Positions 16,377-46,015 of a DNA stretch of 64,000 nucleotides are shown piece after piece. The first letter of the stretch is position 1. Each line of letters opens with the position of its first letter. This DNA comes from an uncultured Bacilli bacterium (GTDB lineage: Bacteria; Bacillota_I; Bacilli_A; RF39; UBA660), in contig CALVRW010000011.1 of assembly GCA_944358795.1 (NCBI GenBank), forward strand, positions 5,737 to 69,736, written 5' to 3'. The translations under genes were made by a program, and so were the position numbers. Under the pieces are notes generated by a model. That model ran no database searches, was not told the origin of the DNA, and worked only from the letters and a program-made list of their open reading frames with translations.

Positions 16377-16377
16377 G

Positions 16378-16402: not shown

Positions 16403-16477
16403 GTCGTTTGCAATTTTTTTGAAATTTTGTTATAATGACACTAGATTGTAGCATAATAGTGCAGGGAGGACGTTTCT

Positions 16478-17014: not shown

Positions 17015-17040
17015 AGAATTTCATGTTCTCTTTTTTTCTT
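17015..17040 (+). terminator. Terminator-like hairpin after the secreted protein gene (partial read-through plausible)
   Basis: agagaa tttcatgt tctct followed by a T-run. Confidence 0.45.
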
Positions 17041-17085
17041 GATCAAAACATGTTATAATAACATTATGATAGAGAGAGTGAAACT

Positions 17086-18198: not shown

Positions 18199-18208
18199 AG
18201 GAGTTTAT

Positions 18209-19267: not shown

Positions 19268-19292
19268 AGATTCTATTTTAGAATCTTTTTTC
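19267..19292 (+). terminator. Rho-independent terminator
   Basis: Stem aagattcta / tagaatctt followed by T6. Confidence 0.65.
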
Positions 19293-19345
19293 GATGAAAT
19301 TTTGTGTTATTAGTGTTATACTAAAGATAGATAGGATGGGATAAT

Positions 19346-20047
19346 ATGGCATATATTGAGTTTTCTAAAATTACAAAAGTATATCAAATGGGAGAAGTAG
19401 AGATTGTTGCGGCAAAAGAAGTTAGTTTTTCAGTAGAAAAAGGAGAACTAGTTGTTGTATTAGGACCAAGTGGTGCAGGAAAAACAACAATTTTAAATAT
19501 TCTTGGTGGTATGGATACTGCAACAAGTGGTACTTTTATGATGGATGGAAAAGATATTACTTCTTATGGAAGAAAACAATTAATTCAATATCGACGATTA
19601 GACATTGGTTTTGTCTTTCAATTTTATAATTTAATTCAAAATTTAACGGCATTAGAAAATGTAGAGCTTGCAGGACAAATATGTCCTAATCCAAGAAATC
19701 CCAAAGAAGTATTAACGGAAGTTGGATTAGAAGATCGAATGGCTAATTTTCCAGCTCAACTATCTGGTGGAGAACAACAACGTGTTAGTATCGCAAGAGC
19801 ACTTGCCAAAAATCCAAAACTATTATTGTGTGATGAACCAACAGGGGCATTAGATTCTAAGACAGGAAGAAAAATACTAGAATTGTTAGAAAAAACATGT
19901 CATGAAAAAAATATGACAACGATTATTGTAACGCATAACTCTAATATTGCAGAAATGGCAGATAAAGTAATTCGAATGAAAAATGGAACGATTGAAGAAG
20001 TGATTGTTCATGAAAATCCGAAAAAAGTAAAGGATATTACTTGGTAA
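19346..20047 (+). CDS. ABC transporter ATP-binding protein (MacB/LolD/FtsE-like)
   Basis: Walker [13 protein letters not shown] signature LSGGEQQR and Walker [13 protein letters not shown]. Confidence 0.9.
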
Positions 20048-22581
20048 TGAAATTATTATTTAAAAATGCTTTTATAAAAGTTCGAAAATCATTTGGAAGA
20101 TTTTTATCACTTCTATTAATTGTTGCTTTAGGTCTTGGCTTCTTTGCTGGACTTAGAGAAACAGCTCCAGATATGCTTTATACTGCCAACCATTATTATC
20201 AAGAATCGAAATTAATGGATGCGAAAATTGTAAGTAATATGGGACTTGATGATTCAGACGTTTCTGCCTTAAAAGAATTATCAGATTTATCTCAGGTAGT
20301 ACCTAGTTATTCTAAAGAAATTCTTGCGAATAAAGAAGTTGTAACGGTTCATTCCATAGAAGAAAATATCAATCAATTGACATTGACAAAAGGAAGAACG
20401 CCAAAGAATAATGATGAATGTTTAGGAGAAGATGGACATTATAAAATCGATCAAACAGTTGAATTTGATCCTAGTGAACAAGAAAATTTTAAAAAGACAT
20501 CATGCAAGATTGTAGGAACAATTACTTCACCAATTTATATCGCAACAGAAAAAGGAATCTCTAATTCTGGAAATGGAAAAATTACTTCTTTTCTGTATTT
20601 ACCAAAAGATAATTTTAATTTACCATATTATACAGAAATCTATCTTCGTATGAAAGATACGGATCAATATGATAGTTATAAACAAGATTATGAAGATTAT
20701 TATAAAGAAGTTGAAAAAAAGATTGAGACAATAAAGGAAAAACAAGAAAATAAACGATATAACTCTTTACAAAAGGAATTAACAGATCAAAAAACGAAAT
20801 TAGAAACAGAATTAGCAAAAATAGACAGCCAATTATCGATGGTACCTAGTACTAGTTCCACTGCTGTCATATTAAATCAAACAAAATCGCAATTAACGCA
20901 AGCGTTACAAACTTTACAAGAACAAAGTTCTAGTTTAACAAAACCTACATGGTATATACTGGATCGAACAAATATCAATGGATATACAAGTTTTGAAGAA
21001 GATGCATTAAAAGTTAGTTCGATTGCAAGTATCTTTCCAATTTTCTTTATCTTAGTTGCTGCTTTTATGTGTTTTAATACAATGACAAGAATGATTGAAG
21101 AAGAAAGAACAGAAATTGGAATTTTATCTGCACTCGGATATACTTCAAGAAAAATTATTAGTAGTTATTTATACTATGTTTTAATCGCAACGGTTACAGG
21201 AATTGCGATTGGATTTTTAATCGGTTATAATTTGATTCCACGTGTTATTTACGATATCTATGCTGCAAATTATGTTTTACCAGAATTAATGATTGTCGTT
21301 AATATGGTTGCTTTCATTAGTATGATTGCTGTAACACTGTTCCTTATTCTTGCTGTTACAATACTTGCTTGTATGAAAGAATTGAAATGTAAACCAGCGA
21401 TTCTATTACGTCCTAAATCACCAAAGAGTGGTAAAAAAGTATTATTAGAATTTATTCCAATGATATGGAATCGTTTTTCCTTTATTTGGAAAGTTACAAT
21501 TCGTAATATGTTTCGATATAAAAAACGTATCTTTATGACTGTACTCGGGATTGCAGGATGTACGGCATTATTATTAACAGGATTAGGATTAAAAGATGGA
21601 ATCGCATCGATTGGAAAAATTCAATATCAAGAATTAATTCGATATGACGCCTTACTTGTGTTACAAAATTCAAATGAAACGATTACAAATGAACATATCA
21701 AAGATTCTATTTTGTTATCACAGACACTTAGTACGTTTAAAGCAAAAGGTAAAACACATGACGCTACAATCATTGTTCCAAAAGAAGAAGATAAAATAAA
21801 TCAATACATTGTTTTACGTGATTATAAAACAAAAGAAAAATTAACGTTACCAAATGATGGGGTATTCATTACAGAGAAAATAGCAGAGTTATTAAAAGTT
21901 GATGTTGGAGATACGATTTCGATTGAATTAAATGATCATGAAAAAGTTTCACTTCCAGTAAAAGGAATTGTTGAAAATTATGCATTACACTATATTTATA
22001 TGTCAGAAGAAGTTTATCAAACTTATATTGATTCTAAGTTAAATTATCAAGTACTAGCAACACAATTAGATCAAGAAGATGAAAATGTTATTGCCAAAGA
22101 ACTTTATCAGAATCCTTCCGTACAAAGTATTTTCTTTACAAGTGATAATATGAAAACATTTGATGTTATAATCGATGGTTTAAATCAAATCATTTATTTA
22201 ATTGTTGGTGCAGCAAGTTTACTTGCATTAGTTGTTTTATATAATTTAACTGCAATTAATATTAATGAACGACTTCGTGAAATCGCAACACTAAAAGTAT
22301 TAGGATTTAAGGATAAAGAAGTATCTAGATATATTGATCGTGAAACAATGATGCTTACATTGATTGGTATTTGTGTAGGATTATTCTTAGGTGTTATTTT
22401 ACATCACTATGTAATACTTACAGCTGAAATGGATAATATGAAATTTATTAGAGAGATTGCTCCTTCTAGTTATGTATTAGCGTTTGTAATGACATTATTG
22501 TTTAGTATTATCATTGAATTCTTCACTTATTTCCGATTAAAGAAAGTAGATATGATTGATTCTTTAAAATCAGTAGAATAA
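20047..22581 (+). CDS. ABC transporter permease with two FtsX-like domains (MacB-type)
   Basis: About 845 aa with a large extracytoplasmic region and two 4-TM FtsX modules. The start forms a TAATG junction with the ATPase gene. Confidence 0.8.
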   Translation: MKLLFKNAFIKVRKSFGRFLSLLLIVALGLGFFAGLRETAPDMLYTANHYYQESKLMDAKIVSNMGLDDSDVSALKELSDLSQVVPSYSKEILANKEVVTVHSIEENINQLTLTKGRTPKNNDECLGEDGHYKIDQTVEFDPSEQENFKKTSCKIVGTITSPIYIATEKGISNSGNGKITSFLYLPKDNFNLPYYTEIYLRMKDTDQYDSYKQDYEDYYKEVEKKIETIKEKQENKRYNSLQKELTDQKTKLETELAKIDSQLSMVPSTSSTAVILNQTKSQLTQALQTLQEQSSSLTKPTWYILDRTNINGYTSFEEDALKVSSIASIFPIFFILVAAFMCFNTMTRMIEEERTEIGILSALGYTSRKIISSYLYYVLIATVTGIAIGFLIGYNLIPRVIYDIYAANYVLPELMIVVNMVAFISMIAVTLFLILAVTILACMKELKCKPAILLRPKSPKSGKKVLLEFIPMIWNRFSFIWKVTIRNMFRYKKRIFMTVLGIAGCTALLLTGLGLKDGIASIGKIQYQELIRYDALLVLQNSNETITNEHIKDSILLSQTLSTFKAKGKTHDATIIVPKEEDKINQYIVLRDYKTKEKLTLPNDGVFITEKIAELLKVDVGDTISIELNDHEKVSLPVKGIVENYALHYIYMSEEVYQTYIDSKLNYQVLATQLDQEDENVIAKELYQNPSVQSIFFTSDNMKTFDVIIDGLNQIIYLIVGAASLLALVVLYNLTAININERLREIATLKVLGFKDKEVSRYIDRETMMLTLIGICVGLFLGVILHHYVILTAEMDNMKFIREIAPSSYVLAFVMTLLFSIIIEFFTYFRLKKVDMIDSLKSVE

Positions 22582-25437: not shown

Positions 25438-25523
<86 letters not shown>

Positions 25524-25600: not shown

Positions 25601-27340
25601 ATGATGAATTTTGATTATGAAGAAATTGAAAGACAATTACAGAATTATGGTCGTTATATTTTAACGATAATAAAAAATAATTATAGTGTTAGTATGAGTG
25701 AGGAACAAAAAGATAAACTTAATCAACTACTGGAACAAGAATTTATTGTGGTTAATAAACCATGTCCAGAAGATCTTGCATTTTTTAGTAAACTTCATCA
25801 TGTAAATGATGCTTCCCAATTTTCAGAACGGTATATCCCATCAGCTCATGGTGGGAGAACAAAAGATGATGGAAAAATTCATTTTTATCCGTATACCAAG
25901 GCATATAAAGATTGTAAAGATACAAAAGACGTAATTAAAAATTGTCTTGATAATATATTAACACATGAAATTTTTCACTATTTTATTCAACCAAATTTAG
26001 GAAATATTCAAGATCCGTATAAAGACGATGTACAATCTTTTTTAACCGAAGGGTTAGTACAAAAGTATACAGAAGATTTTCATGAAAAATATCTACAATC
26101 ACAAAAACCAAAATCCGAATATCATGAAAATGTCAAAATAGCGACACAATTACTTAATTCATTGCAACATGGACTTCAAATGTCCGGAAATGAAATGAGT
26201 GATAGGAGATTACAAAAAGAATTAAATTCTTTGGTGTTTCAGTCTAATCGTTCAAATATATTAGAAAAATCATCCATTGGGAATCGAATTTACCAAGAAT
26301 GTACAGAACAGGTTATCTTAGAAAAAATGTGGAAACAAGGACAAAAGGGTCAATGCAGTATTTTTGAGTATGGTAATTATGAAATACATGGAGTGATTCC
26401 TAGTGCAGATGATCGCTTTCAACAACCATATCTTTTAATTATTCCAAAAGATATGGATCCTGATGCTCCGATGATCGTAGAGACGAATAATTTGGAAGAT
26501 CGAGATATGAAAAAATTATTAAATCAGGCATCATTAGAAACGGCTAAAAATCTAATACAGATTTCAAATAGAATGAAAAGTCCAATTATGGTACCTATTT
26601 TACCAGGAAATCCTAAAGGTCCTTATTATCAACAATTATCTGAAGAATGTTTTACTAACGAGATAAATCCAATGAATCAACGTATGGATTTGCAGGTAAC
26701 GGAGATGATCGCATCAGCAAAAGAAAGAATTTTAAATAGTACAGGAGTGAAAGTACCAGATAAAATTTTTATGAATGGTTATTCCGCTTCTGGTGTTTTT
26801 GCCCAACGTTTTGCTTTATTACATCCAGAACTGATTGATACGTTATGTGTTGGTGGTGCCAGTGGAAGTATTCCAATGCCAAATCCTGATTTAGATTATC
26901 CATTAGGTATTAGAAATTATAAAGAAATCACAGGACATGAATTTGATTATGAAGCTTATCTTAATATTCGATTTCGTTACTATGTCAGTGAATTTGAAAA
27001 AGAAAAAGTAAATAAAACAAGGTTTACAGAAGATGGAGCATATGCGCCAATGCATGATATGAGTTATTTTTCTAGAAGTGTATCAAATGAAACGGGACAA
27101 GTATTTAGAAATCTATATGGAAAAGATTTATTGGAACGTTCCTACTATCAAATTATGTTACTGCAACAATTAGGATTTGATATTCAGCAACAAATGATTT
27201 TAGGAAAGTATCATAATAATATCAATCAACCTCTTTCAGAAATGGATATGAGTATGAACGAAGAAGGTGTTTATGTAACTGGAAATGACTTTGTACGAAA
27301 CGTTTATCAAGAAAGTATGAGAAAAGGAAAACAACTTTGA
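25601..27340 (+). CDS. Hypothetical 579-aa protein with an HEXXH motif
   Basis: THEIFHYF is a possible zinc-metallopeptidase motif, but on its own it is not diagnostic. Confidence 0.45.
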   Translation: MMNFDYEEIERQLQNYGRYILTIIKNNYSVSMSEEQKDKLNQLLEQEFIVVNKPCPEDLAFFSKLHHVNDASQFSERYIPSAHGGRTKDDGKIHFYPYTKAYKDCKDTKDVIKNCLDNILTHEIFHYFIQPNLGNIQDPYKDDVQSFLTEGLVQKYTEDFHEKYLQSQKPKSEYHENVKIATQLLNSLQHGLQMSGNEMSDRRLQKELNSLVFQSNRSNILEKSSIGNRIYQECTEQVILEKMWKQGQKGQCSIFEYGNYEIHGVIPSADDRFQQPYLLIIPKDMDPDAPMIVETNNLEDRDMKKLLNQASLETAKNLIQISNRMKSPIMVPILPGNPKGPYYQQLSEECFTNEINPMNQRMDLQVTEMIASAKERILNSTGVKVPDKIFMNGYSASGVFAQRFALLHPELIDTLCVGGASGSIPMPNPDLDYPLGIRNYKEITGHEFDYEAYLNIRFRYYVSEFEKEKVNKTRFTEDGAYAPMHDMSYFSRSVSNETGQVFRNLYGKDLLERSYYQIMLLQQLGFDIQQQMILGKYHNNINQPLSEMDMSMNEEGVYVTGNDFVRNVYQESMRKGKQL

Positions 27341-29256: not shown

Positions 29257-32073
29257 ATGGATAAAATTATTGTAAAAGGTGCTAGAGTAAACAATTTAAA
29301 AAATATTGATATTGAACTACCAAAAGATAAATTAATTGTTATGACTGGAGTATCAGGTAGTGGGAAAAGTAGTTTAGCGTTTGATACTATTTATGCAGAA
29401 GGACAAAGACGTTATGTAGAAAGTTTAAGTGCTTATGCTAGACAATTTTTAGGTGGTAGTGAAAAGCCAGATGTTGATAGTATTGAAGGGTTATCACCTG
29501 CAATTAGTATTGATCAAAAAACGACAAATAAAAATCCACGAAGTACGGTTGGAACTGTAACGGAAATTTATGATTATTTGCGATTATTATATGCGAGAGT
29601 AGGAGTTCCTTATTGTCCAGTTCATCACATTCCAATTAGTAGTCAAAGTATTGAAGAGATGACAAATCAAATTTTAAAGTTAGAGGAAAGAACAAAAATA
29701 CGCGTTTTAGCGCCCGTTGTTCATGGAGAAAAAGGAACACAAAAAGACTTGTTAGAAAAATTAAAAAAAGAAGGATATGTTCGGGTTATTGTCGATGAAG
29801 AAGAACATGATTTAGAAGAAGAGATTACGTTAGAAAAAAACAAGAAACATAATATCGAAGTTGTAATTGACAGGTTAATTATCAAAGAGGGTATCCGAAG
29901 TCGTTTGTATGATTCGATTGAAACGGCAGCAAAACTTGCACATGGGAAAGTAGTCATTGATGTTGTTGGCGATAAAGAAATTGTAATGAGTGAAAAGTAT
30001 GCATGTCCACACTGTGATTTTTCACTTCCTGAGTTAGAACCAAGAATGTTTTCTTTTAATGCTCCTTATGGTGCTTGTGAAGATTGTAAAGGACTTGGAA
30101 TTAAATTAAAAGTAGATGAAGATTTAATTGTACCAGATAAAAATTTAAGTATTAATGATGGTGCCATTGTTTCTCTAAATATCAAAGATGAAAATAATAT
30201 TAATTATACAGAGTTATTTACGACATGTCAGTTTTATCAAATTGATATGAATGTTCCTTTTAAAGAGTTAAAGAGAAAAGATGTAGAAACATTGTTCTAT
30301 GGATCACCAGATGATATTGAATTTCATTATGTGTCAAAATCAGGTAATACAAGAAGTGTAAAACGTCCTTATGAAGGAATTATTACTAATTTAGAACGTC
30401 GTTATATGGAAACAAAGAGTGGATGGATTCGTGACTGGATTGAGAATTTCATGACCGAGCTTCCATGTCCAACTTGTCATGGTGCTAGATTAAATGATTC
30501 TGTGTTATCAGTTTTAGTTGGTGATAAAAATATTTATGAAGTAACAAAGTTAAGTATTGGTGATTTACACACATTTTTCAATTCCTTGACATTATCACAA
30601 GAGCAACAAGAAATTTCTCGTTTGATTTTAAAAGAAATTGATTCTCGTTTAAGATTCTTAATTAATGTAGGTCTTGAATATTTAACGTTAAATCGTAGTG
30701 CTGGAACGCTATCAGGAGGAGAAGCACAACGAATTCGTTTGGCAACACAAATTGGTTCTCGTTTAACTGGAGTACTATATGTACTAGATGAACCTAGTAT
30801 TGGACTTCATCAACGTGATAACAATCGATTAATTAATTCGATGTTAGAAATGCGTGATTTAGGAAATACATTGATTGTTGTAGAACACGATACGGATACG
30901 ATGCTTGCAAGTGACTATTTAGTAGATATTGGTCCACGAGCTGGTAGTCATGGTGGAGAAGTGATTGCAGCTGGAACACCAGAAGAAGTAATGAAAAATA
31001 AAAATAGTTTAACCGGAAAATATTTAACTGGTGAATTAAAGATTGATGTTCCAAAAACAAGAAGAAAAGGAAATAAAAAGTATTTAGAAGTAAAAGGTGC
31101 GAAAGAAAATAATTTGAAAAATATCAATGTTAAGATTCCACTTGGAACATTTACTTGTGTAACAGGGGTATCAGGTAGTGGAAAATCAACTTTGGTAAAT
31201 GAAATTATTTATAAAGCAGTATCAAATCATTTATATAAAAATAAAGAAAAACCAGGATTACACAAAGAAATAAAAGGATTAGAACATATTGATAAAGTAA
31301 TTGATATTTCACAAACACCAATTGGTAGAACACCACGAAGTAATCCGGCAACTTATACAGGAGTATTTGATGATATTCGAGATGTATTTACGAATACAAA
31401 AGAAGCAAAAATGCGTGGTTATGATAAAGGAAGATTTTCTTTCAACGTGAAAGGTGGACGTTGTGAAGCTTGTTGGGGAGATGGAGTAAAGAAAATTGAA
31501 ATGCATTTCTTACCAGATGTTTACGTTCCATGTGAAGTATGTGGTGGAACAAGATATAATCGTGAAACATTAGAGATTAAATATAAAGGAAAAAGTATTT
31601 ATGATGTGTTAGAAATGACAGTAGAAGAAGCATTAGAATTTTTTGAAAACATTCCAAAAGTAAAAACAAAATTACAAATGTTAATGGATGTAGGTCTTAG
31701 TTATATCAAATTAGGACAAAGTGCTCCAACTTTATCAGGTGGAGAAGCAGCACGTGTAAAACTTGCGAAAGAATTACAGAAAAAACCAACAGGAAAAAGT
31801 TTATTTATTTTAGATGAACCAACAACTGGATTACATACGGACGATATTAAAAAATTACTTGTTATTTTACAAAGAATTGTCGATAATGGGGATACTGTAT
31901 TAGTAATTGAACATAATTTAGATGTGATTAAAGTTGCTGATTATATTATCGACTTAGGTCCAGAAGGTGGTAATAAAGGTGGTACAATTATTGCCAAAGG
32001 AACACCAGAAGAAATTGTAAAAGTAAAAGAAAGCTATACTGGTGAGTATTTAAAACCATTATTAAACAAATAA
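29257..32073 (+). CDS. uvrA: Excinuclease ABC subunit A
   Basis: Two ABC modules with Walker [10 protein letters not shown] and GVSGSGKST and signatures LSGGEAQR and LSGGEAAR. Zinc fingers CPHC…C and CEAC…C. 938 aa. Confidence 0.95.
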
Positions 32074-32183
32074 ACTAATTGATAGATGGGAAAAGTACAA
32101 GTTTTAATGAATAAAATTTGTGCTTTTTTGTTTTTCTTTTATATTATTGTGTTATAATACATAGCAAGAAAAGAGGATATTGT

Positions 32184-32876
32184 ATGGACATGAGAGAAAA
32201 TAAAACATTAAAAAAATATATTAGAAGTTTAAAATATAATATTGGAAGTACTGAGTGGATAAAAAATTGTCCAGATCAAAAAGCTGACTGGTTAAATTAT
32301 ATTTGTAGTAATCGTTATAATGAAAAGCAAGTTTTAGAGTTTATTCAATTATTATTAGAAAAAACAGATATTGATATTAATCAAGTGGATAATGATGGCT
32401 ATAATTTTATTCAAAATGCTTTATATTCTAATTATAGTGAAGATTTTATGATGCAATTATTTGATATTGCTTATCATCATGGTAATTTTGATATTAATTA
32501 TCATGGAGATGCTTATGGTGATACAGTAATACATACAGCAATTGAAAGTGATTGCTATACAGGTAAAATAGCACCGTTAATGAGAATTGCTAATAAAATG
32601 GGATTTGATCCTAGCATTAAAAATGACGACAATAAAACTGTTTTAGATGTTTCTTTAAATCCCGATTGTAACTATGAATTAGATGAAGAGGATCTTTTAG
32701 AAGTGAAAAATTTAATTAAACTGCAACAAGAAAAAATAAGATTAGAAAAATCAAAAGAAAAGTTATTATTGATTCAAAAACAATTAGAAAACATTTTAGA
32801 ACCATTAGATGAAGAAGAAAGACAACAAGTTTTAGAAGCAACTTATAAAGTGTATTCATATAAAAAGACGAGATAA
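32184..32876 (+). CDS. Ankyrin-repeat-like protein
   Basis: GDTVIHTAIESD…IAPLMRIANKMGFDPSIKNDDNKTVLDVSL fits the ANK repeat pattern. RBS aagagga precedes it. Confidence 0.45.
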   Translation: MDMRENKTLKKYIRSLKYNIGSTEWIKNCPDQKADWLNYICSNRYNEKQVLEFIQLLLEKTDIDINQVDNDGYNFIQNALYSNYSEDFMMQLFDIAYHHGNFDINYHGDAYGDTVIHTAIESDCYTGKIAPLMRIANKMGFDPSIKNDDNKTVLDVSLNPDCNYELDEEDLLEVKNLIKLQQEKIRLEKSKEKLLLIQKQLENILEPLDEEERQQVLEATYKVYSYKKTR

Positions 32877-32889
32877 CGGGGGATTACCA

Positions 32890-35721
32890 TTGCTAATAGT
32901 AAGAAAGAGTATAGATAACTATTTTATGATAAATCAGTTATTGAATATTATATTTAAAAATACCAAAAATTTATTATGGATTAAAAATTATAATGATCAG
33001 GAAAAAGTAGCGATTAAAGATAAAATGATAGCAATCGCGAATGATGAATTACCTGTTTGTGCAATTGATTTTGATGAGATGAAATATTTATTTATAGAAT
33101 TTTTTAGAAAAGACTCTATCAATGAAGATTTTTATAAATTTTTAAAAAAAGATATTGATATCATTCATGAACAGATTGATAGTATTATGAATTATTTATT
33201 GGAAATAGAAAAAAAGCAGAATATCATTACTTGTGATATGTTAGATATCGTACTAAAAATATATCCGGAGGCAAAAAAAGTATTTAATAGTAGAGAAAGT
33301 TTTCATCAATTAGTTGAAGATAATTGGAATGATATTACTAAATTGTTAGAACTAATGGATAAATATAACATTGTTCATTCGATAGAAACGGGTATTTATT
33401 TTTTTGATTATGTTCAAAGTGAAAATAAAATATTTGCAAGTAAGGACACTTTAAATGTTTGTTATCAATATTTTATAAAAAATATTGAACAGGGTAATTT
33501 AAATCAACTTTATTTATTTGGTTCTGTATTACCTGATGAATTAACGAATCAATATCTTGAGTTATTGATTGAAAAAGATGTATTCCATCATTTGCAGTTT
33601 ATTGATGATAATGGACAATTGTTAAAGGATAAGTCAGCAAAAAAAATTAGAAATGAAAAATTTCAAGAAAAGTTTTTACAATATTATTCTAAAAAAATTA
33701 ATCTTAATTTTACAGAATTTTTTACACAAACAAAAGTTACTTTGCTAATTAAATACCTATTTGATTATCAGAATTTTTATTCAGAAGAAGAAATCGATAA
33801 TATCTTTAATATGATACAGGATGGTATTTCAATTCCAATCTCTAGTGATTATGATGTAGATAAAAGGAACAAATCTAGTTTACCTTTTTTCAATATTAAA
33901 CAATTATTGTTAACCAATGATATTGATTATTTATGGAAGATTGATGCTTATTTTGAAGATTTGACTCCTATATTAGAAAAAATAATAATTGATAGATTAC
34001 AAAATGATACCAATCTTTCTATTATGGATAATATTAAATCACCATTTACCAATGAATATTTAGCCTTAATAAAAAATAAAAAACCAGAAGTAAGAGAACA
34101 ATTGTATTCCATATTTTATCAATACTTTAGAAAAAAATTTAACATTGAAAATAATGATTATGATAAGTATCTTTATCAATTATTTATTAAATACGTTGAT
34201 GGAAAACATATTTATGCTATTTCAAAATTAGAATCAGTAAAAGAGATGATTGCCTTTTTAAAAATGCGTTATTGGCAATTTGATTTTAATCAAATAACAG
34301 AAGAGCAAATAAAAAATATGAATGTGAAACATATTTTTAGGTTAAATAAGATGATTGATGATTTCTATCAAAAAATAAGTGATGATGAAAAAGAGAGGTA
34401 TCATTTATTACTAATGAAGTGTTATTTTATTTTCGGCTTTGATAAGGCAAAAGTAGTACTTGAAAGTATTGATAAACTCAACGAGTTAGAGCACTTATTT
34501 GATACGATTGATATTCATAACGTACATTATGATGAAATAGGAAATCTCATTTTAAATCAAAAATTTATTCATATGTATATAGATATATTTAAAAGAAAAG
34601 AGAAAAGTTCAGATGCATATAAATTATTTTCAGATATCTATAATCATTATGATAGTCTCATAAATCATCTTCAAAAAGATAGTAGAACATTACCAAAACT
34701 TTTAAAATTATATAAATATAAAAGATTTCTTAATGCAGGATTTTCTCCTAATTATTATCAATTAATGAATCAAATTATTTATTTACCAAATAATAAGGTA
34801 GTGAATGAAAATATAAAATGGTATGAAGTAATGAAACAGCGTTATAAGAGTAATATTCCTAAAGTGAGTGGTAAGTTAAATCACTATCATTATGAAATAC
34901 TTGATTTAGATGATCCTCTTACATTAACAGTTGGGAAAAGAACGAATTGTTGTTTTTTACTAGATGGTGCATCACGAACTTCTTTAAAACATGCGATGAC
35001 TGCTGATAATGGTAGAGTCTTTGTTGTGTTTGATGGAAGTGAAGTAATCGCACAAAGTTGGGTATGGCGTGATGGAAATATTCTATGTTTTGATAATGTT
35101 GAGTCTATTAAAAATGATCATGAATTATCAGATTGTTATGTCGAAGCAATTCATAAAATTGTTGCACAGTCAAAATTAAGAGAACATCCTGATGAACGTA
35201 TTAAGATGGCAACCATTGGAATAAATCATTCTGATTTAAAATATGAGTTTACCAAACAATATCCTCATATATTTTCAAAAAATCATTTAAAACAGTTTAG
35301 TCCTATTTTAAATGATGATAGTGAGAATAATGAAATCTATAGTGATGCAAAATTAGAACAATGTGTACTATATAAAGAAACTGATTTTCATATTGAAGAT
35401 AATAACCATATTCAAAATCCAATTTATTTAGATGAAAGACCATTTATTAGTAAAATTGATGTAAAAAGTAGTTCTGATTTATCTAATGCTGAATTATTGA
35501 TTCATTCAATTCAATGCGATTTAGCGTTACCACTAATAAAAAAGGAAGAATTAAATCAAGTGAAACAAATTTATCATAGTAAAGATTGGTATATAATGAT
35601 TTATCAAGATGGAAGCTATGATTCAAATATCTATAGTATTGATCCTAGAGCGCATGAAGAGTATGAAACAATATTAGATGTTATAACATTAGAAAAAGAA
35701 GCAGTTTTAGTTAAAAAATAA
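32890..35721 (+). CDS. Large (943 aa) hypothetical protein
   Basis: Long clean ORF starting at a TTG 14 nt after the ankyrin gene. I recognised no motif. Confidence 0.45.
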   Translation: MLIVRKSIDNYFMINQLLNIIFKNTKNLLWIKNYNDQEKVAIKDKMIAIANDELPVCAIDFDEMKYLFIEFFRKDSINEDFYKFLKKDIDIIHEQIDSIMNYLLEIEKKQNIITCDMLDIVLKIYPEAKKVFNSRESFHQLVEDNWNDITKLLELMDKYNIVHSIETGIYFFDYVQSENKIFASKDTLNVCYQYFIKNIEQGNLNQLYLFGSVLPDELTNQYLELLIEKDVFHHLQFIDDNGQLLKDKSAKKIRNEKFQEKFLQYYSKKINLNFTEFFTQTKVTLLIKYLFDYQNFYSEEEIDNIFNMIQDGISIPISSDYDVDKRNKSSLPFFNIKQLLLTNDIDYLWKIDAYFEDLTPILEKIIIDRLQNDTNLSIMDNIKSPFTNEYLALIKNKKPEVREQLYSIFYQYFRKKFNIENNDYDKYLYQLFIKYVDGKHIYAISKLESVKEMIAFLKMRYWQFDFNQITEEQIKNMNVKHIFRLNKMIDDFYQKISDDEKERYHLLLMKCYFIFGFDKAKVVLESIDKLNELEHLFDTIDIHNVHYDEIGNLILNQKFIHMYIDIFKRKEKSSDAYKLFSDIYNHYDSLINHLQKDSRTLPKLLKLYKYKRFLNAGFSPNYYQLMNQIIYLPNNKVVNENIKWYEVMKQRYKSNIPKVSGKLNHYHYEILDLDDPLTLTVGKRTNCCFLLDGASRTSLKHAMTADNGRVFVVFDGSEVIAQSWVWRDGNILCFDNVESIKNDHELSDCYVEAIHKIVAQSKLREHPDERIKMATIGINHSDLKYEFTKQYPHIFSKNHLKQFSPILNDDSENNEIYSDAKLEQCVLYKETDFHIEDNNHIQNPIYLDERPFISKIDVKSSSDLSNAELLIHSIQCDLALPLIKKEELNQVKQIYHSKDWYIMIYQDGSYDSNIYSIDPRAHEEYETILDVITLEKEAVLVKK

Positions 35722-35785
35722 TTGCTTCTTTTTTTATTTTATAATTTGTTATATAATAGGAATAATGATAGAAAGAAGGTAGAGT

Positions 35786-36343
35786 ATGCAGTTTGAAATT
35801 GTAACAACAGAAGAAAAATTAAAAAAGCATTTTGAACGAGATTATCGAACGTTAAGTATGGTATGTTTACTCATGTATACGATTATCGTTTTTGCTCTTT
35901 GTTCTAGTTTTATTCAAACCGATTTTTGGAATGTAATCAAATACTATTTCATTGGACTAATCATTTTAGCTATTTTCTTATATATTCTTACAAAATTGAC
36001 GACAATGATTAGTTTGTATATGCTGAAGCATGTTGTCCATTATAAATATGGAACATTTACTGAAGTAATTAATGAAAAAGGAATTACCGAAGTATTAGAT
36101 GATGATGCGATATCGTTAAAATGGAGTGAAGTAGGGAAAGTTGTAACAGCTTATAAATTTATTATTGTAAAACCAAAAGATAAGAAGAATCCAAGTTTCT
36201 TATATCGTAAAAAACATTTTAAAACAGAAGAAGAGTATCAAGAAGTAGTTGATACCATTCATAAATACTATGAATTATATTTAGAGAAAGAAGGGAAAAA
36301 ATATGACACCACACAACGAAGCAAGAAAAGAAGAAATCGCTAA
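35786..36343 (+). CDS. Small membrane protein (two TM segments)
   Basis: Hydrophobic segments IVFALCSSFIQ and YFIGLIILAIFLYIL. Confidence 0.4.
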   Translation: MQFEIVTTEEKLKKHFERDYRTLSMVCLLMYTIIVFALCSSFIQTDFWNVIKYYFIGLIILAIFLYILTKLTTMISLYMLKHVVHYKYGTFTEVINEKGITEVLDDDAISLKWSEVGKVVTAYKFIIVKPKDKKNPSFLYRKKHFKTEEEYQEVVDTIHKYYELYLEKEGKKYDTTQRSKKRRNR

Positions 36344-37007
36344 AACAGTAATTATGCCAGGAGATCCACTACGTGCAAAAAAAGTAGCGGAAATCTATTT
36401 AAAAGATTGTAAATTAGTTAGTAAAGTACGTAATATTTATGCTTATACTGGTACCTATAAAGGAAAAGAAGTTACGATTATGGCATCAGGTATGGGAATG
36501 CCTAGTATGGGAATTTATTCTTATGAATTATACAAATTTTATGATGTTGAAAACATTATACGTGTTGGAACAGCAGGAAGTTATGTAAAAGAATTAAATG
36601 TATATGATGTATTATTAGTAGAAGAATCTTATAGTGATTCTAGCTTTGCTAAAGTACAAAATCATAGTTTAGAAGATACGATTTCTTCTTCAAAAGAGTT
36701 AAATGATTGTATTTTAGAAACAGCAAAATCATTAAATATGCCACTTTCAGTAGGAAAAGTATATAGTACTGATGTATTTTATAAAGAGGACAGTAATTAT
36801 CAAACTTGGGTAAATAAAGGTTGTATGGTATGTGAAATGGAATCTTTTGCACTTTTCCATAATGCAAAAGTATTAAATAAACGTGCTACATGCTTACTTA
36901 CAATTTCTGACCATTTTATTACAGGAGAAGAAACAACAAGTGAAGAACGTGAAACGAAGTTTATGGCAATGATGGAGTTAGCACTAGAAACAAGCTTAAA
37001 ATTATAA
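36303..37007 (+). CDS. deoD: Purine nucleoside phosphorylase, DeoD type
   Basis: MTPHNEARKEEIAKTVIMPGDPLRAKKVAE…GMGMPSMGIYSYEL matches hexameric PNP-I. Confidence 0.85.
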   Translation: MTPHNEARKEEIAKTVIMPGDPLRAKKVAEIYLKDCKLVSKVRNIYAYTGTYKGKEVTIMASGMGMPSMGIYSYELYKFYDVENIIRVGTAGSYVKELNVYDVLLVEESYSDSSFAKVQNHSLEDTISSSKELNDCILETAKSLNMPLSVGKVYSTDVFYKEDSNYQTWVNKGCMVCEMESFALFHNAKVLNKRATCLLTISDHFITGEETTSEERETKFMAMMELALETSLKL

Positions 37008-42225: not shown

Positions 42226-42684
42226 ATGGATAAGTTTAATCGAACACTTCGTGGTTATGATCCAATTGAAGTCAATAACTTTTTAGATAAAGTTATTAAG
42301 CAAGTGGAAATAATGGTTGGGGAATTAAACGAAAAAGATGAAAAGATTGCTCGTTTAGAGGCTTATGAAAAAGAAAATGAAATGTTAAAACAAAAATTAG
42401 AACAATATCGTAGAACAGAAGAAACGATGAATCGGGCAATTATGATGGCACAAAAAACATCAGATCAGATGAAAGTAGCTGCTCATCATGAATGCGAAGT
42501 TATTATTAATGATGCGAAACGTAATGCGAATCGTATTATCAATGAAGCCCTTTTAAAAGCTGAAAAAACAGAGCAAGAAGCAAATATGTTAAGACGTAAT
42601 ATTAGTATTTTTAAACGTCGATTAAGAAGTATCATCGAAGCACAACTAGAAATGGTTGATGAAATTGACCATGTAGAATTATAA
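42226..42684 (+). CDS. divIVA: DivIVA domain protein
   Basis: N-terminus FNRTLRGYDPIEVNNFLDKV plus a coiled coil. Confidence 0.85.
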   Translation: MDKFNRTLRGYDPIEVNNFLDKVIKQVEIMVGELNEKDEKIARLEAYEKENEMLKQKLEQYRRTEETMNRAIMMAQKTSDQMKVAAHHECEVIINDAKRNANRIINEALLKAEKTEQEANMLRRNISIFKRRLRSIIEAQLEMVDEIDHVEL

Positions 42685-42699
42685 AACAATCGAGAAAGA

Positions 42700-42895
42700 C
42701 GGTATATAACTAGAGTGATAGAAAGTTCGTGGTTGATGGAAACGAATACGAAGGTTATATATAGATCACTTTTGATGTGACTAATGAAGGTTAGTCCGGG
42801 TAACGCCGTTATCGTATTAAGTGTATAAACTCATTATAAAATAAGGTGGTACCGCGGGGAAACTCGTCCTTATAATAAATGAGTTTTTTTGTTAT
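42700..42895 (+). promoter_or_regulatory. T-box riboswitch leader (tRNA-sensing antiterminator) of ileS
   Basis: Conserved T-box sequence aaggtggtaccgcgg at about 42844-42858. It is followed by the terminator hairpin aaactcatt…aatgagttt and a T-run immediately upstream of the ileS RBS. Confidence 0.75.
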
Positions 42896-42916: not shown

Positions 42917-45900
42917 ATGGGACAATTTAAAGAATTAAGTAAAGAAAAAGTAAGTGTAGTAGAAAGTAAGATTTTAAAAGAATGGAAAGAGAAAGATATT
43001 TTAAATTTAACGATTGAAAATAGAAAAGGAAAAGAAGATTTTGTTTTCTATGATGGTCCAATTTATGCGAATGCGAAACCTGGAATTCATCATGTTTTTG
43101 CGAAAACAATTAAAGATGCTTTCTGTAAGTATAAAACGATGCGTGGGTACCGTGTTTTAAGAAAGATTGGATTAGATACACATGGACTTCCAATCGAAGT
43201 AAATGTTGAAAAAAAATTGGGATTTAAATCAAAAACTGATATTGAAGAATTTGGAATTGAAAAATTTTGTGAAGAATGTAAAAGCGAGACAGATAGTAAT
43301 ATTGATGAAGTAAAAAAAGTAACGGATATGATGGGACAATTTATTGATTGTGATCATCCATATGTTACTTGTAGTAATGAATATATTGAATCTGAATGGT
43401 GGATTGTAAATGAATTAAATAAAAAAGGACTACTTTACCATGGAAATAAAGTATTACCATATTGTCCTAGATGTGGTACGGAACTTGCAAGCCATGAAGT
43501 ATCACAAGGATACAAAGAAGTTAGTGTTAATACGGTTATTGTACCATTTAAATTAGTAGATAAAGATGAATATTTCTTAGTATGGACTACAACACCATGG
43601 ACTTTAATGGCCAATGTTGCAGTATGTGTAAACCCTGATTTAGAATATGTAAAAGTAGAGTCTCGTGGATATAAATTTATTTTATGTTCTAGTTTATTAC
43701 AACAAGTATTAGGGGATGACTATGAAATATTAGAAACATATAAGGGAACTGACTTAGTTGGAATGAAATATGAACAATTTATGCCATTTGTTAAAGTAGA
43801 AGGAAAAGCTTTTGAAGTAATTGCTGATACATATGTTACAGATAGTGATGGTACAGGTATTGTTCATATCGCACCTGCTTATGGGGCAGATGACAACCGT
43901 ATTTGTGTTGCGAATGGAATTGCTTTTGTGAATCCAGTAGGAACAGATGGATGTTATAAAGAAGGACCATGGAAAGGAACGTTAGTAACGGATCCAGAAT
44001 TAGAACTTGATATTATTAAATGGTTAAAAGAGAATGATAAATTATTTAAAAAACAAAAGATGACGCATGATTATCCACATTGTTGGAGATGTAAACAACC
44101 ACTTATTTATTTTGCAAAACCAGCATGGTATGTAAGAAATACTGCATATAAAGAAGAAATTATTAAAGCAAATGAAACAGTAAACTGGTATCCAGATTAT
44201 ATTGGAAAGAAGAGATTTGCTAACTGGTTAGAAAATATGATTGATTGGGGTATTTCAAGAAATCGTTATTGGGGTTGTCCACTTCCAATTTGGACTTGTG
44301 ATTGTGGTCATTTTGAAACAATTGGTTCTGTTGCTGAATTAAAAGAAAAAGCAGTTGAAAAAGTAGAGGATAATTTAGAACTTCATCGTCCATATGTTGA
44401 TCAAATTCATCTTACTTGTCCACATTGTGGAAAAAAGATGAGTCGTGTAAGTGATGTAATGGATGTATGGTTTGATTCAGGAGCGATGCCATATGCACAA
44501 TTCCATTATCCATTTGAAAATAAAGAATTATTTGAATCACAATTTCCAGCTGATTTTATTGCAGAAGGGGTAGACCAAACAAGAGGTTGGTTCTATGTAT
44601 TAATAGTTCTTTCTACTTTAATTAGTGGAAAATCTAGTTTCAAAAATGTTGTAGTAAACGATATGATGTTAGATGCTAATGGAAAGAAAATGAGTAAATC
44701 AACAGGAAATATTATTAATCCAATTGAGATTATGGAACAATATGGAGCTGATACAGTTCGATTCTATATGTTATATGCATCTCCAATTTGGACTCCATTA
44801 AAATTTGATGTAGAAGGATTAAAAGAAGTATATTCTAAATTCTTTAATACTTTAAAAAATACTTATAATTTCTTTGCTCTTTATGCGAATACTGATCAAG
44901 TAGATCCAAGAGAATTTGAAGTTGATTATCAAGATAGAACATTAATTGATAAATGGTTGCTTTCTAAATATCATCAATTATTAAAAGATGTGACAAGTTA
45001 TTATGAAGAATATGATTTAACAAAAGTAGTACGTAGTATTACAAACTTTGTAAATGAAGATTTATCAAATTGGTATATTAGAAGAAATCGTAGAAGATTC
45101 TGGGCAAGTGAATTAGATCTTGATAAAAAAGCGGTTTATAAAACAACTTATGAAGTATTGGTAGGACTTTGTGAAATGATTGCTCCAATTGTACCTTATC
45201 TTTCAGAAGAAATGTATCAAGCATTAACAGGAAAAGAATCTGTTCATTTAGCAGACTTCCCAACTTATGATGAAAAGTTGATTGATAAAGCAATTGAAGA
45301 AAAAATGGATTTAGTTCGTGACTTAATTAGTTTAGGAAGAAATGCCAGAGAAGAAGCAAAAATTAAAGTTCGTCAACCAATTAGTAAAGTAATTATTGAT
45401 GGTAAGAATAAGGAAATTATTGGAGACCTTACAGATTTAATTTTAGAAGAATTAAATGTAAAAGAAGTTGTTTATGAGGAAAACTTAAGTAACTTCATGA
45501 ACTTTATTGTTCTTCCTAATTACAAAGTAGCGGGTCCAATCTTTGGTTCTAATATTAAAGCATATGCAAAAGCATTAACAGAACTTTCTTTAGAACAAAT
45601 TATGAGTCTACAAAGCGAGGAAAATATTGATATTTTAGTAGATGATGTAGAATACAATATTTCTAGTGATATGGTAGTAATTCGTATTTCTTCAAAAGAA
45701 GGATTTAATGCACAAATGGAACACAATCACTTCATTATTTTAGATACAGAATTAACAGATGATTTAATTTATGAAGGAATTGCTCGTGAACTTGTTTCTA
45801 AAGTACAAAATTTAAGAAAGAATAAAGATTTTGAAGTAGCAGATCGTATCTTGTTATATTATAATGGAGACGAAGAGTTTGAAAAAGCGCTTACTAAATT

Positions 45901-46015
45901 TAAAGAATTTGTACAAAATGAAACATTAGCTTTAAATATTACAAAGAAAGAGAATCTAGAAGTAGCTTATGATTTAAATGGACATGAAGTATATCTTGAT
46001 GTTGAAAGAGTATAG
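42917..46015 (+). CDS. ileS: Isoleucyl-tRNA synthetase (type 2-like)
   Basis: HIGH-region variant PGIHHVFAKTIKD…YKTMRG and KMSKS as KKMSKSTGN. 1032 aa with no C-terminal zinc finger of type 1. Confidence 0.9.
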   Translation: MGQFKELSKEKVSVVESKILKEWKEKDILNLTIENRKGKEDFVFYDGPIYANAKPGIHHVFAKTIKDAFCKYKTMRGYRVLRKIGLDTHGLPIEVNVEKKLGFKSKTDIEEFGIEKFCEECKSETDSNIDEVKKVTDMMGQFIDCDHPYVTCSNEYIESEWWIVNELNKKGLLYHGNKVLPYCPRCGTELASHEVSQGYKEVSVNTVIVPFKLVDKDEYFLVWTTTPWTLMANVAVCVNPDLEYVKVESRGYKFILCSSLLQQVLGDDYEILETYKGTDLVGMKYEQFMPFVKVEGKAFEVIADTYVTDSDGTGIVHIAPAYGADDNRICVANGIAFVNPVGTDGCYKEGPWKGTLVTDPELELDIIKWLKENDKLFKKQKMTHDYPHCWRCKQPLIYFAKPAWYVRNTAYKEEIIKANETVNWYPDYIGKKRFANWLENMIDWGISRNRYWGCPLPIWTCDCGHFETIGSVAELKEKAVEKVEDNLELHRPYVDQIHLTCPHCGKKMSRVSDVMDVWFDSGAMPYAQFHYPFENKELFESQFPADFIAEGVDQTRGWFYVLIVLSTLISGKSSFKNVVVNDMMLDANGKKMSKSTGNIINPIEIMEQYGADTVRFYMLYASPIWTPLKFDVEGLKEVYSKFFNTLKNTYNFFALYANTDQVDPREFEVDYQDRTLIDKWLLSKYHQLLKDVTSYYEEYDLTKVVRSITNFVNEDLSNWYIRRNRRRFWASELDLDKKAVYKTTYEVLVGLCEMIAPIVPYLSEEMYQALTGKESVHLADFPTYDEKLIDKAIEEKMDLVRDLISLGRNAREEAKIKVRQPISKVIIDGKNKEIIGDLTDLILEELNVKEVVYEENLSNFMNFIVLPNYKVAGPIFGSNIKAYAKALTELSLEQIMSLQSEENIDILVDDVEYNISSDMVVIRISSKEGFNAQMEHNHFIILDTELTDDLIYEGIARELVSKVQNLRKNKDFEVADRILLYYNGDEEFEKALTKFKEFVQNETLALNITKKENLEVAYDLNGHEVYLDVERV

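Follow-up and report, generated by a model that had tools for sequence, protein, structure and literature searches.

The 64,000-nt stretch of bacterial DNA analyzed here (the window) carries an ankyrin-repeat gene and a much larger gene in tandem, directly downstream of uvrA (Table 1). Both open reading frames were confirmed on the plus strand, and their tight spacing bears out the two-gene operon proposed in an earlier note on this DNA, although the measured gap is 13 nt rather than the 14 nt given there. The gap and the ribosome-binding sites (RBSs) together predict an operon. The ankyrin gene has an ATG start 8 nt 3′ of the sequence AAGAGG. The TTG start of the large gene is supported by sequence comparison, as the homologues at two related loci (L001 and L003) likewise begin with TTG and keep the first 12 residues (ML.V+..[IF]D..). 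Both are genuine genes under purifying selection, with dN/dS ratios of 0.22 to 0.30 for the ankyrin gene and 0.19 to 0.32 for the large gene. The note had placed the pair between uvrA and deoD; it does follow uvrA, but a gene for a 185-aa membrane protein (p185) separates it from deoD. Genes for M16 peptidases are further neighbors in the window.

The same note had described the flanks as promoter-like. A generic promoter scan showed no excess of such elements (38, compared with 42 expected by chance), but one candidate, an extended −10 element 5′ of the ankyrin gene, is conserved and may serve as the operon promoter. L001 has an identical TGTGTTATAATAC element 5′ of its ankyrin gene, and the upstream regions of the two ankyrin genes align with a score of 82, versus 33 ± 5 for shuffled sequences. 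A terminator scan found none.

Table 1. Features of the two-gene locus and its surroundings (positions in the window)
Feature	Position	Strand	Description
uvrA	29257-32073		5′ neighbor of the gene pair
Candidate extended −10 promoter (TGTGTTATAAT) of the ankyrin/large-gene operon	32148..32158	+	Sequence reading
Ankyrin-repeat gene	32184-32876	+	ORF, 230 aa
Ankyrin-repeat and coiled-coil protein, 230 aa	32184..32876	+	Ankyrin-like, ~aa 30-165; long C-terminal helix, ~aa 168-229
Large gene	32890-35721	+	ORF, 943 aa, TTG start
943-aa cytoplasmic protein	32890..35721	+	All-alpha, aa 1-650; C-terminal alpha/beta, aa 650-943
Family core, aa 644-739	34819..35106	+	Matched segment universal in exhaustive search
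Predicted GNAT-like fold domain, ~aa 650-830	34837..35379	+	Without motif A (Q/RxxGxG/A)
Right junction of cassette	35722..35785	+	Homologous to uvrA-p185 spacer of empty site; carries p185 promoter and RBS
185-aa membrane-protein gene (p185)	35786-36343		Between large gene and deoD
deoD	36303-37007		Overlapped by p185 gene

The ankyrin assignment of the smaller protein stood up to repeat detection. It matches the Pfam family Ank_4 at 28.6 bits, above the curated cut-off of 22.7 (E = 1.8e-6), with Ank_2 under its cut-off, and a phmmer search of the PDB aligned residues 47 to 160 with the ankyrin domain of RNase L (2.9e-5) and with more than 15 DARPins. Six ankyrin partners from the family described below share the motifs Y.FIQ.ALY.GYSE and GDT..HTAI..D.Y.G, and the TPLH-like motif GDTVIHTAI is kept in all six. 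A single-sequence AF2 model of the window protein has three helix pairs and a long terminal helix, at low confidence (mean pLDDT, 58.5).

The 943-aa protein has no family match in Pfam, NCBIfam, PHROGs, PADLOC, or PDB sequences, in agreement with its first description as belonging to no recognizable family. The accompanying label of orphan, which word-indexed searches also suggested, does not hold. Those searches returned just 3 to 5 matches, a yield that probably reflects a word prefilter in which just the 8,000 candidates that share most words are scored. An exhaustive profile search, by comparison, recovered 839 cluster representatives at an E value of ≤1e-3 (357 at ≤1e-10), so that the family of the protein comprises 839 or more clusters defined at 50% identity. 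The family is one of gut and rumen bacteria, and a cluster look-up of ten representatives turned up, across all sources, no name denoting a function. Homologues were found at 98, 76, and 61% identity. The AF2 model of the window protein has a mean pLDDT of 77.5, with values mostly between 80 and 96 over residues 380 to 790 and 820 to 930.

The Cys-containing C-terminal region that the note had singled out proved to be the most conserved part of the protein. The core that is matched throughout the family has the signature R651, S-[ST]-I-P657, Y.YE.L.LDDP, G682..T.CC688, H701, NGR709.FV, AQSW.WRNG, and CFDN[IV]E738. Over alignments of 148 and 59 sequences, C688, R709, R727, D735, and E738 are invariant and C687 and H701 nearly so. 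A profile of the 59 core sequences retrieved nothing from PDB sequences at an E value of ≤10. The region had been left unassigned, but the AF2 model predicts an unusual GNAT-like fold: the C-terminal domain agrees with the GNAT pattern of a mixed beta-sheet with splayed beta4 and beta5 and helices alpha1 to alpha4, and the core corresponds to beta1-alpha1-alpha2-beta2-beta3-beta4 in the secondary structure of the model.

The domain departs from the GNAT superfamily (RimI/Naa-like) in several ways. Sequence identity is 5 to 14%, and the large protein matches no acetyltransferase model in Pfam or NCBIfam at an E value of ≤1. The domain sits inside proteins of 900 to 1900 aa with near-constant neighbor genes. 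Motif A, which lies in the beta4-alpha3 loop and binds the CoA pyrophosphate, was absent from all 27 full-length relatives in the alignment, and none of 137 representatives had it in the 25 aa that follow CFDNIE. A domain that lacks it may be unable to bind CoA, or may be no enzyme at all. Conservation is also inverted: ordinary GNATs vary in the N-terminal half of the fold, which binds the substrate, whereas here that half is the most conserved and carries the CC/H/R/WxWR signature. By analogy with GNAT topology, the signature residues (CC, H, two Arg, WxWRNG, and CFDNIE) would lie in the half that faces the substrate and at the beta4 end, the place of the catalytic base in GNAT enzymes.

The absence of the cofactor-binding motif and the concentration of conservation in the N-terminal half, together with Cys or His kept at four positions, would also suit a domain that is not catalytic, in which C687, C688, H701, and C733 bind metal or are structural, and the protein is a scaffold or sensor whose output passes through its partners (ankyrin, AAA+, or ALDH-like). 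Partners in many clades are indeed enzyme-like (AAA+ or ALDH-like), but the Pfam search found no enzymatic domain in the window's ankyrin partner. Moreover, the invariant R709, R727, D735, and E738 at the beta4 end resemble an active site. The core domain also occurs in ORF68L of the Microcystis phage MaMV-DC (profile E = 7.7e-18), where CC and CFDN.E are kept and both Arg residues are lost, a pattern that fits substrate variation and not a metal site. We consider a noncatalytic domain quite improbable.

Nearly every family gene is tightly coupled to a partner gene on the same strand, with ALDH-like, unnamed, and ankyrin proteins as alternative classes. Among 63 dereplicated loci, the adjacent same-strand partners belonged to classes C1 (24 loci), C2 (11), ankyrin (7), and C5 (4), and the gap between partner and family gene was −62 to +21 nt in 38 of 45 cases. 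Ankyrin partners adjoin members of the family in three or more lineages that diverged deeply (the large proteins being 25 to 32% identical), once with the gene order swapped (L013; E = 1e-15), which upholds the view of the pair as a two-component unit. The ankyrin protein is not a universal component, however: L003, the 76%-identical and closest homologue outside the species, has no ankyrin neighbor. A resemblance between the C-terminal KDWYI block of the large protein and the C terminus of long C2 partners was not significant (E = 0.055).

Partner classes have been swapped between clades, and the N-terminal architecture of the large protein tracks the partner class. N-terminal homology (profile positions below 260) was restricted to one clade, whose members have an ankyrin partner wherever the upstream gene was visible (five loci, with three more cut at a contig edge and L003 as the sole exception). 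Gene linkage suggests that the ankyrin protein and the large protein interact. In L024 and L015, an ankyrin module homologous to that in the window forms a fusion with one AAA domain of the Clp/Hsp100 type (PF00004; E = 1e-12 to 2e-13). Such fusions recall Skd3/CLPB-type proteins, in which an ankyrin substrate-binding domain feeds an unfoldase, and the way Clp adaptors work. The resemblance is one of architecture, and the window protein differs in having ankyrin repeats and a coiled coil but no ATPase.

The comparison with related strains that the note had recommended revealed an empty site: in a related genome (L106/L107), uvrA is followed directly by p185. The gene pair is therefore an accessory cassette that is missing at the same site in a related genome. 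The right junction aligns locally with the empty-site spacer of L106 with scores of 56 (window) and 78 (L001), compared with 25 ± 4.6 for shuffles, 0 of 1,000 of which scored as high, and the uvrA terminator hairpin is retained 3′ of the large gene in L001. Similarity of the left junction to the empty site was marginal (3/1,000 and 46/1,000 shuffles), so no target site duplication is claimed; a search for repeats flanking the cassette gave just AT-rich chance matches. The GC content of the cassette is 0.24, versus 0.285 in the rest of the window, and the large gene has diverged much faster than its neighbors (61% identity versus 81 to 95%).

Relatives of the pair are mobile. In L015, the pair lies between TnpV and a large serine recombinase on one side and a Mob_Pre relaxase and a second large serine recombinase on the other, which is the typical gene set of Tn4451/Tn4453-type mobilizable transposons, and the pair is thus cargo of a Tn4451-like element. 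The same pair has different flanks in L020 and L024, and insertions of other relatives lie in the nusG-rplK interval (L013) and the prs-typA interval (L006). The likeness to Tn4451/Tn4453-type elements belongs to the L015 pair. No recombinase or relaxase adjoins the cassette in the window, where the only serine recombinase-like ORF (positions 4214 to 5839) is ∼27 kb away, and the window copy resembles an insertion that became fixed or a cassette gained by recombination.

These patterns bear on a cellular, nonconflict role. By analogy with the eukaryotic and archaeal Nat complexes, the pair might form a lineage-specific protein-acetyltransferase complex in which an N-terminally fused helical scaffold and an ankyrin adaptor place the GNAT domain on a machine such as the ribosome, with a regulatory or housekeeping function. 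We think this unlikely: it is hard to square with the family-wide absence of the acetyl-CoA motif, the empty site, carriage of a relative by a mobilizable transposon, the fast evolution of the large gene, and the exchange of partner classes between clades.

Alternatively, the pair could be left-over cargo of a mobile element or phage, or help such an element to establish itself. It would then be akin to PcfJ-like proteins of conjugative plasmids and SPO1-like phages and serve the element (through anti-defense or DNA entry) and not the host. Besides the Microcystis phage homologue and the transposon-borne L015 pair, some structural matches point this way. In a Foldseek search of BFVD, the best match was an uncharacterized 656-aa phage protein (E = 1.6e-9), followed by LP65 Orf137 (E = 9e-3) and, weakly, a “PcfJ like protein” (E = 0.047; probability, 0.6). 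PcfJ-like proteins (PF14284; pCF10-type plasmids and Herelleviridae phages) are, like the family, large, mostly helical, and found on mobile elements. The motif order of the family core (G..T.CC, helix, G...F.V, ...G..N) parallels that of PcfJ (EG..L.HCV, helix, G.t.I.F.R, ..Q.rG..N), and both C-terminal blocks can be written as G..x.[HC]C, helix, G...[IF].[FV].R-like strand, hairpin, ...G..N/D. PcfJ, however, stops just past the equivalent of beta4, and no sequence relationship is statistically supported: homology was not significant with a single sequence or with a 9-sequence alignment (hhalign probability, 0.17%), and there was no Pfam PcfJ match. A tblastn search of PLSDB plasmids with the core gave no match, family loci numbered 1 from 2.9 million viral contigs versus 164 from metagenomes, and most loci are chromosomal with housekeeping neighbors. 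PcfJ itself has no known function, and the comparison therefore yields no mechanism. Overall, a role that serves the element alone seems rather improbable.

The reading that we favor, with a probability of roughly 45%, is of a mobile module with two components that acts in conflict or modification and has a predicted noncanonical GNAT-like enzyme as its basis. A self-contained accessory cassette would have moved horizontally and inserted right after uvrA, and its own promoter would drive one transcript for two cytoplasmic proteins. The small ankyrin-repeat protein with its coiled-coil tail would work by protein-protein binding, and the divergent GNAT-fold C-terminal part of the 943-residue protein would be the constant, presumably catalytic, element of the unannotated family. 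As the signature residues map to the substrate-facing half and the beta4 end and the CoA pyrophosphate motif is missing, we propose that the domain acylates or aminoacylates a macromolecular target, possibly with a donor other than acetyl-CoA, or performs related Cys chemistry on it. The N-terminal helical region covaries with partner class, from which we infer that the partner docks there. The ankyrin protein may recruit the target or restrain the enzyme. In sister systems, the ankyrin module and a Clp-type AAA+ unfoldase are parts of one fusion protein.

Proteins that mobile elements deploy repeatedly use GNAT domains as protein-modifying modules (PMC5512222). The pair resembles GNAT toxin-antitoxin systems (TacT/AtaT/KacT, with DUF1778/RHH antitoxins) in being a tight two-gene operon of a GNAT-fold protein and a small, possibly neutralizing partner and in its mobility and patchy distribution. 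Those toxins, however, are canonical acetyl-CoA GNATs of ∼170 aa, whereas the protein here has 943 aa and lacks motif A, and their antitoxins are encoded upstream and bind DNA, whereas the ankyrin partner has no DNA-binding domain. Neither window protein matches a GNAT toxin-antitoxin family.

Given the mobility, genetic conflict is the most likely biological role, whether as anti-mobile-element defense, as an establishment function of the element itself, or as a toxin/regulator pair. More speculatively, and with appreciable doubt, the CC/H/R/WxWRNG/CFDNIE domain may be the catalytic core of a widespread, unrecognized two-component class that occurs in Firmicutes of the gut and rumen and in some phages: a GNAT-fold enzyme that gave up acetyl-CoA for another donor or a Cys mechanism and whose interchangeable partners (ankyrin, ankyrin-AAA+ unfoldase, ALDH-like, and C2) set its targets in conflicts between hosts and mobile elements.

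Pfam, NCBIfam, PHROGs, PADLOC, and the PDB all lack this family of more than 800 clusters (at 50% identity). What is new for it is the predicted GNAT-like fold, a diagnostic signature, and a genomic grammar of a constant core and swappable partner genes. An active transferase that lacks the CoA-binding loop would widen the chemistry known for a fold that is among the best studied in enzymes. If these are conflict systems, they would represent a new class, one peculiar to low-GC gut bacteria that are poorly cultured and escape defense inventories based on model organisms. The empty-site/filled-site pair and the transposon-borne relative offer concrete constructs for testing.

The note had offered sporulation and defense as possible functions. 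A sporulation accessory pair, suggested solely by the Firmicute setting, is highly improbable: neither protein matches a sporulation family, the neighbors are uvrA, deoD, and M16 peptidases, and members of the family are found in phages and on a transposon. A defense role is possible but unsupported. The window proteins match no defense-system model in PADLOC-DB v2, relatives and their partners gave generic AAA matches only, and no paper was found in a literature search combining ankyrin, GNAT, AAA+, and anti-phage terms. The recommended check for co-occurrence with defense islands gave no support for such a location. The 149 neighbors from 63 loci fell into 142 different Pfam families, mostly housekeeping, with no enrichment of defense or mobile-element genes, and a PADLOC census of the same neighbors gave generic matches only (for example, FtsK-like or PNP-like). 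At a single locus (L014), AbiEii/SMODS/SLATT fragments lie nearby.

Two plus-strand ORFs lie between uvrA and a 185-aa membrane-protein gene that overlaps deoD (see the table), with 13 nt between the stop codon of the ankyrin gene and the TTG of the gene for the 943-aa protein. This start is supported by the homologues at L001 and L003 (loci whose large proteins are 61% and 76% identical to that of the window), which share the TTG and the conserved first 12 residues. The gene pair that the earlier note had described is confirmed. Purifying selection acts on both members (dN/dS, 0.19 to 0.32 for the 943-aa gene and 0.22 to 0.30 for the ankyrin gene; among the neighbors, uvrA, 0.04; the 185-aa gene, 0.04; deoD, 0.15 to 0.24). 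Their G+C content is 0.24 to 0.25, compared with 0.285 in the remaining window. A generic promoter scan of the window did not rise above chance and found zero terminators; a candidate extended −10 element 5′ of the ankyrin gene, TGTGTTATAAT, is also conserved in L001.

Coordinates of features in the window and at loci bearing homologues or partners
Locus	Feature	Position	Strand	Details
Window	Large serine recombinase-like ORF	4214-5839		525-aa ORF next
Window	tRNA gene	25438-25520
Window	579-aa ORF	25601-27340
Window	uvrA	29257-32073
Window	Candidate extended −10 element	32148-32158
Window	Ankyrin-protein gene	32184-32876	+	230 aa; ATG start, AAGAGG upstream
Window	943-aa-protein gene	32890-35721	+	TTG start, GGGGGA upstream
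Window	185-aa membrane-protein gene	35786-36343
Window	deoD	36303-37007
Window	T-box leader	42681-42874		107.5 bits
Window	1032-aa ORF	42917-46015
L003	AAA_5 ATPase and DUF7192 protein	12825-15900		Uncultured Bacilli bacterium MAG
L006	C2 partner	11568-12266
L008	Two family paralogues	8001-21619		1872 and 1305 aa
L008	Downstream gene	19224-21619		1222 aa
L009	C1 partner	12259-13233		~325 aa
L011	MaMV-DC ORF68L	4531-6624		697-aa hypothetical protein
L012	pCF10 PcfJ gene and overlapping gene	15874-17984
L013	Insert	4817-10902		970-aa family member, ankyrin partner, 134-aa lysine/glutamate-rich ORF
L017	C2 partner	7692-9122
L029	C2 partner	7473-8213
L086	C1 partner	7151-8173		~325 aa

The ankyrin assignment is borne out by a Pfam Ank_4 match (28.6 bits against a curated cutoff of 22.7; E = 1.8e-6), by phmmer matches of residues 47 to 160 to PDB sequences (numerous DARPins and, at 2.9e-5, the ankyrin domain of RNase L), and by two blocks that are invariant across six aligned ankyrin partners, Y.FIQ.ALY.GYSE and GDT..HTAI..D.Y.G. 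A low-confidence single-sequence AF2 model (pLDDT, 58.5) has helices arranged in three pairs, and residues 168 to 229 form a long helix at the C terminus.

The 943-aa protein had zero matches in Pfam, NCBIfam, PHROGs, PADLOC, and PDB sequences, and three close homologues (98, 76, and 61% identity) were all that a word-indexed search retrieved. Using the alignment of close homologues as a profile, an exhaustive HMM search of 1.84 billion representatives matched 839 proteins at E ≤ 1e-3, 357 at ≤1e-10, and 59 at ≤1e-30, so the large protein is not the orphan it had been taken for. Coverage analysis places the universal family core at residues 644 to 739; the C-terminal region (∼460 to 930) is common to ∼40% of the top 150 matches and the N-terminal region to only ∼12 matches. 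Across 148 sequences, the core signature consists of R651, S-[ST]-I-P657, Y.YE.L.LDDP, G682..T.CC688, H701-[SA], NGR709.FV, AQSW.WRNG, and CFDN[IV]E738, and is exactly the Cys-containing stretch quoted in the earlier note. Family members are 500 to 1900 aa long, and most originate from metagenome assemblies of the human gut and other host-associated sources (locus G+C, 0.26 to 0.33). None of 17 members scored above the curated cutoffs of Pfam, and none of ten family clusters bears a functional name. Two nearby paralogues occur at L058 (634 and 1649 aa) and at L008, where the downstream 1222-aa gene is BLAST-similar to the 1305-aa paralogue yet was missed by the core profile.

We modeled the 943-aa protein with AF2 on a 27-sequence full-length alignment (mean pLDDT, 77.5; mostly 80 to 96 over residues 380 to 790 and 820 to 930). 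In the model, residues 1 to 650 are all-alpha, and residues 650 to 830 follow the order beta-beta-alpha-alpha-beta-beta-beta-alpha-beta-alpha-beta. Foldseek against the PDB returned GNATs only (best E = 2.9e-3; TM to target of ∼0.5 to 0.6, in single-domain matches) and nothing for the helical part. By model and structural search, the C-terminal region, which had been considered unassignable, can thus be assigned a GNAT-like fold. Given the GNAT-only matches and the order of strands and helices, the family core corresponds to beta1-alpha1-alpha2-beta2-beta3-beta4; in ordinary GNATs, the beta1-to-beta4 half is the least conserved and binds the acceptor. The hallmark GNAT motif A (Q/RxxGxG/A) lies in the beta4-alpha3 loop and binds the CoA pyrophosphate. 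None of 27 aligned relatives and none of 137 representatives has it, and the fold is therefore GNAT-like without a defining sequence feature of acetyl-CoA-dependent enzymes. A 59-sequence core profile matched no PDB sequence even at E ≤ 10. From GNAT topology, D735 and E738 are predicted at the end of beta4, the general-base position in many GNATs, and the CC and H residues on the alpha1-alpha2 arm.

The family core is also carried by ORF68L of a cultured cyanophage, Microcystis phage MaMV-DC (E = 7.7e-18), which keeps T.CC, AQSW.W, and CFDN.E and lacks the otherwise invariant R709 and R727. In a structural comparison with BFVD, an uncharacterized 656-aa phage protein ranked first (E = 1.6e-9), and Foldseek against BFVD also returned a "PcfJ like protein" (E = 0.047). 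PcfJ-like proteins resemble the core in motif order, a forced hhalign aligning G..T.CC to EG..L.HCV. The hhalign probability was ∼0.2% for the core, both against the single PcfJ sequence of pCF10 and against a 9-sequence profile that takes in Herelleviridae homologues, and the PcfJ relationship is an unproven lead. The pCF10 PcfJ gene overlaps one annotated "Cas9 inhibitor AcrIIA9 family protein"; this neighborhood is anti-defense, and the core domain resembles the PcfJ family only superficially.

We gathered loci from metagenomes (80) and a viral collection (one), together with several contigs found by exact protein match; after ORF calling and dereplication, 63 family loci remained. Almost always, the family gene is adjoined by a same-strand neighbor from one of a few classes. 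C1 partners (∼320 to 380 aa) have a weak ALDH-like C terminus (Pfam Aldedh, 8.8e-5, below the Pfam cutoff) and occur at 24 loci, at +1 in 21 of them, with family proteins of 904 to 1872 aa, and at −2, −1, or +2 in three. They are the commonest partner of long family members; no obvious catalytic cysteine was seen by eye in the L009 sequence. C2 partners (196 to 476 aa, no Pfam match) lie at +1 at 11 loci, next to family proteins of 933 to 1188 aa; they share the block YDPTPMT...FDYL.GR..K..L...YNRDN..GLAQR.I, and the one at L006 is apparently split over two ORFs. Four loci have a C5 partner at +1, a DUF5684 membrane protein followed by two more conserved genes (family proteins, 808 to 1382 aa). 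Ankyrin partners occur at seven loci (−1 in six, +1 in one), with family proteins of 871 to 970 aa (1488 aa at L089): the window lineage, L013, L024/L019/L020, L015, an L026 fragment, and L089 (AAA only, opposite strand). The large protein of L013 shares only ∼25% identity with that of the window, and the gene for the ankyrin homologue there (31% identity; E = 1e-15) lies downstream, not upstream, of the large gene. L024 and L015 carry the ankyrin module as a fusion with a Clp-type AAA domain (PF00004, 8e-12 and 2e-13). For 38 of 45 partners, the gap to the family gene is between −62 and +21 nt, which indicates translational coupling.

Partner class covaries with the N-terminal architecture of the family protein. 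Homology to the N-terminal region of the window protein (profile positions <260) is confined to the ankyrin-partnered clade, in which every locus with a visible upstream gene has the partner (five loci; at three others the contig ends too soon), and to L003. C2-partnered proteins align only from position ∼370 to 470 onward and C1-partnered proteins over the core only. This covariation is our chief reason for concluding that the large protein and its partner act in physical association. L003/L016 departs from the pattern: the 76%-identical homologue has no ankyrin neighbor and follows trpS and a PepSY protein; downstream are an AAA_5 ATPase (724 aa, MoxR/dynein-type, at L003) and a DUF7192 protein, which may be an alternative partner set.

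Contigs of relatives, reached via homologues of the 185-aa protein, reveal the empty site. At L106/L107, only a 70-nt spacer separates uvrA from the 185-aa gene, and deoD and two M16 peptidase genes come next (identity to the window: uvrA C terminus, 92%; 185-aa protein, 67%; deoD, 66%; peptidases, 73% and 68%). The spacer 3′ of the large gene aligns to the empty-site spacer with scores of 56 (window) and 78 (L001), against 25 ± 4.6 for shuffles (0/1000), and the terminator hairpin of uvrA persists in the L001 spacer. On this evidence, the cassette lies downstream of the uvrA stop codon and upstream of the original terminator. At the left junction, similarity is marginal, and we do not claim a target duplication. 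At L015, a viral-collection locus, the ANK-AAA and family pair is flanked by TnpV and a large serine recombinase on one side and a Mob_Pre relaxase and a second large serine recombinase on the other, adjoined by a phage-type integrase/ImmA/HTH module; we take this gene set to be that of Tn4451-type mobilizable transposons, with the pair as cargo. One and the same pair (509 and 957 aa) has differing flanks in L020 and L024, and other relatives form single insertions between prs and typA (L006) and between nusG and rplK (L013), the latter a junction that ranks among the best conserved in bacteria. A recombinase-like ORF in the window (27 to 28% identical to the L015 recombinases; E = 1e-29), ∼27 kb away from the cassette, may mark a separate mobile element.

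Mobility and partner swapping point to a role in conflict, or to an accessory role of another kind, more than to a core cellular function. We are confident in the structural and genomic description of the cassette. As a whole, the reading that it is a mobile two-gene accessory module has a probability of roughly 0.45; its constant part would be a noncanonical GNAT-like enzyme domain and the ankyrin protein an adaptor or regulator, one among several interchangeable partners. Proteins deployed by mobile elements are known to contain GNAT domains as a recurrent module (PMC5512222). The function is most probably a conflict-related modification of a macromolecule, any specific chemistry being more doubtful than the module itself. 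The candidate novel two-component unit of the earlier note stands, but we found no evidence of defense islands or of sporulation. PADLOC had zero matches for window proteins and gave generic AAA similarity only for relatives and partner classes. The 149 proteins flanking the 63 loci fall into 142 different Pfam families, dominated by housekeeping functions that include aminoacyl-tRNA synthetases, FtsK, PNP, and ABC transporters, and their PADLOC matches were generic; L014 alone has KilA-N and AbiEii/SMODS/SLATT fragments nearby. Nothing supported a sporulation-accessory role.

Elsewhere in the window, the 579-aa ORF had no Pfam, NCBIfam, PHROGs, or PADLOC match and only a faint BioH-like alpha/beta-hydrolase hint (residues ∼376 to 437); a tRNA gene was also found. 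The 185-aa protein, a predicted membrane protein for which no family match was found, is an unannotated deoD partner under strong constraint: its identity to L001 is 95% (deoD, 81%; large protein, 61%), and the 41-nt overlap lies in an adjacency kept in all relatives seen (L104 to L106). A T-box leader directly precedes the 1032-aa ORF; judged by its synteny with L104, this ORF is probably ileS.
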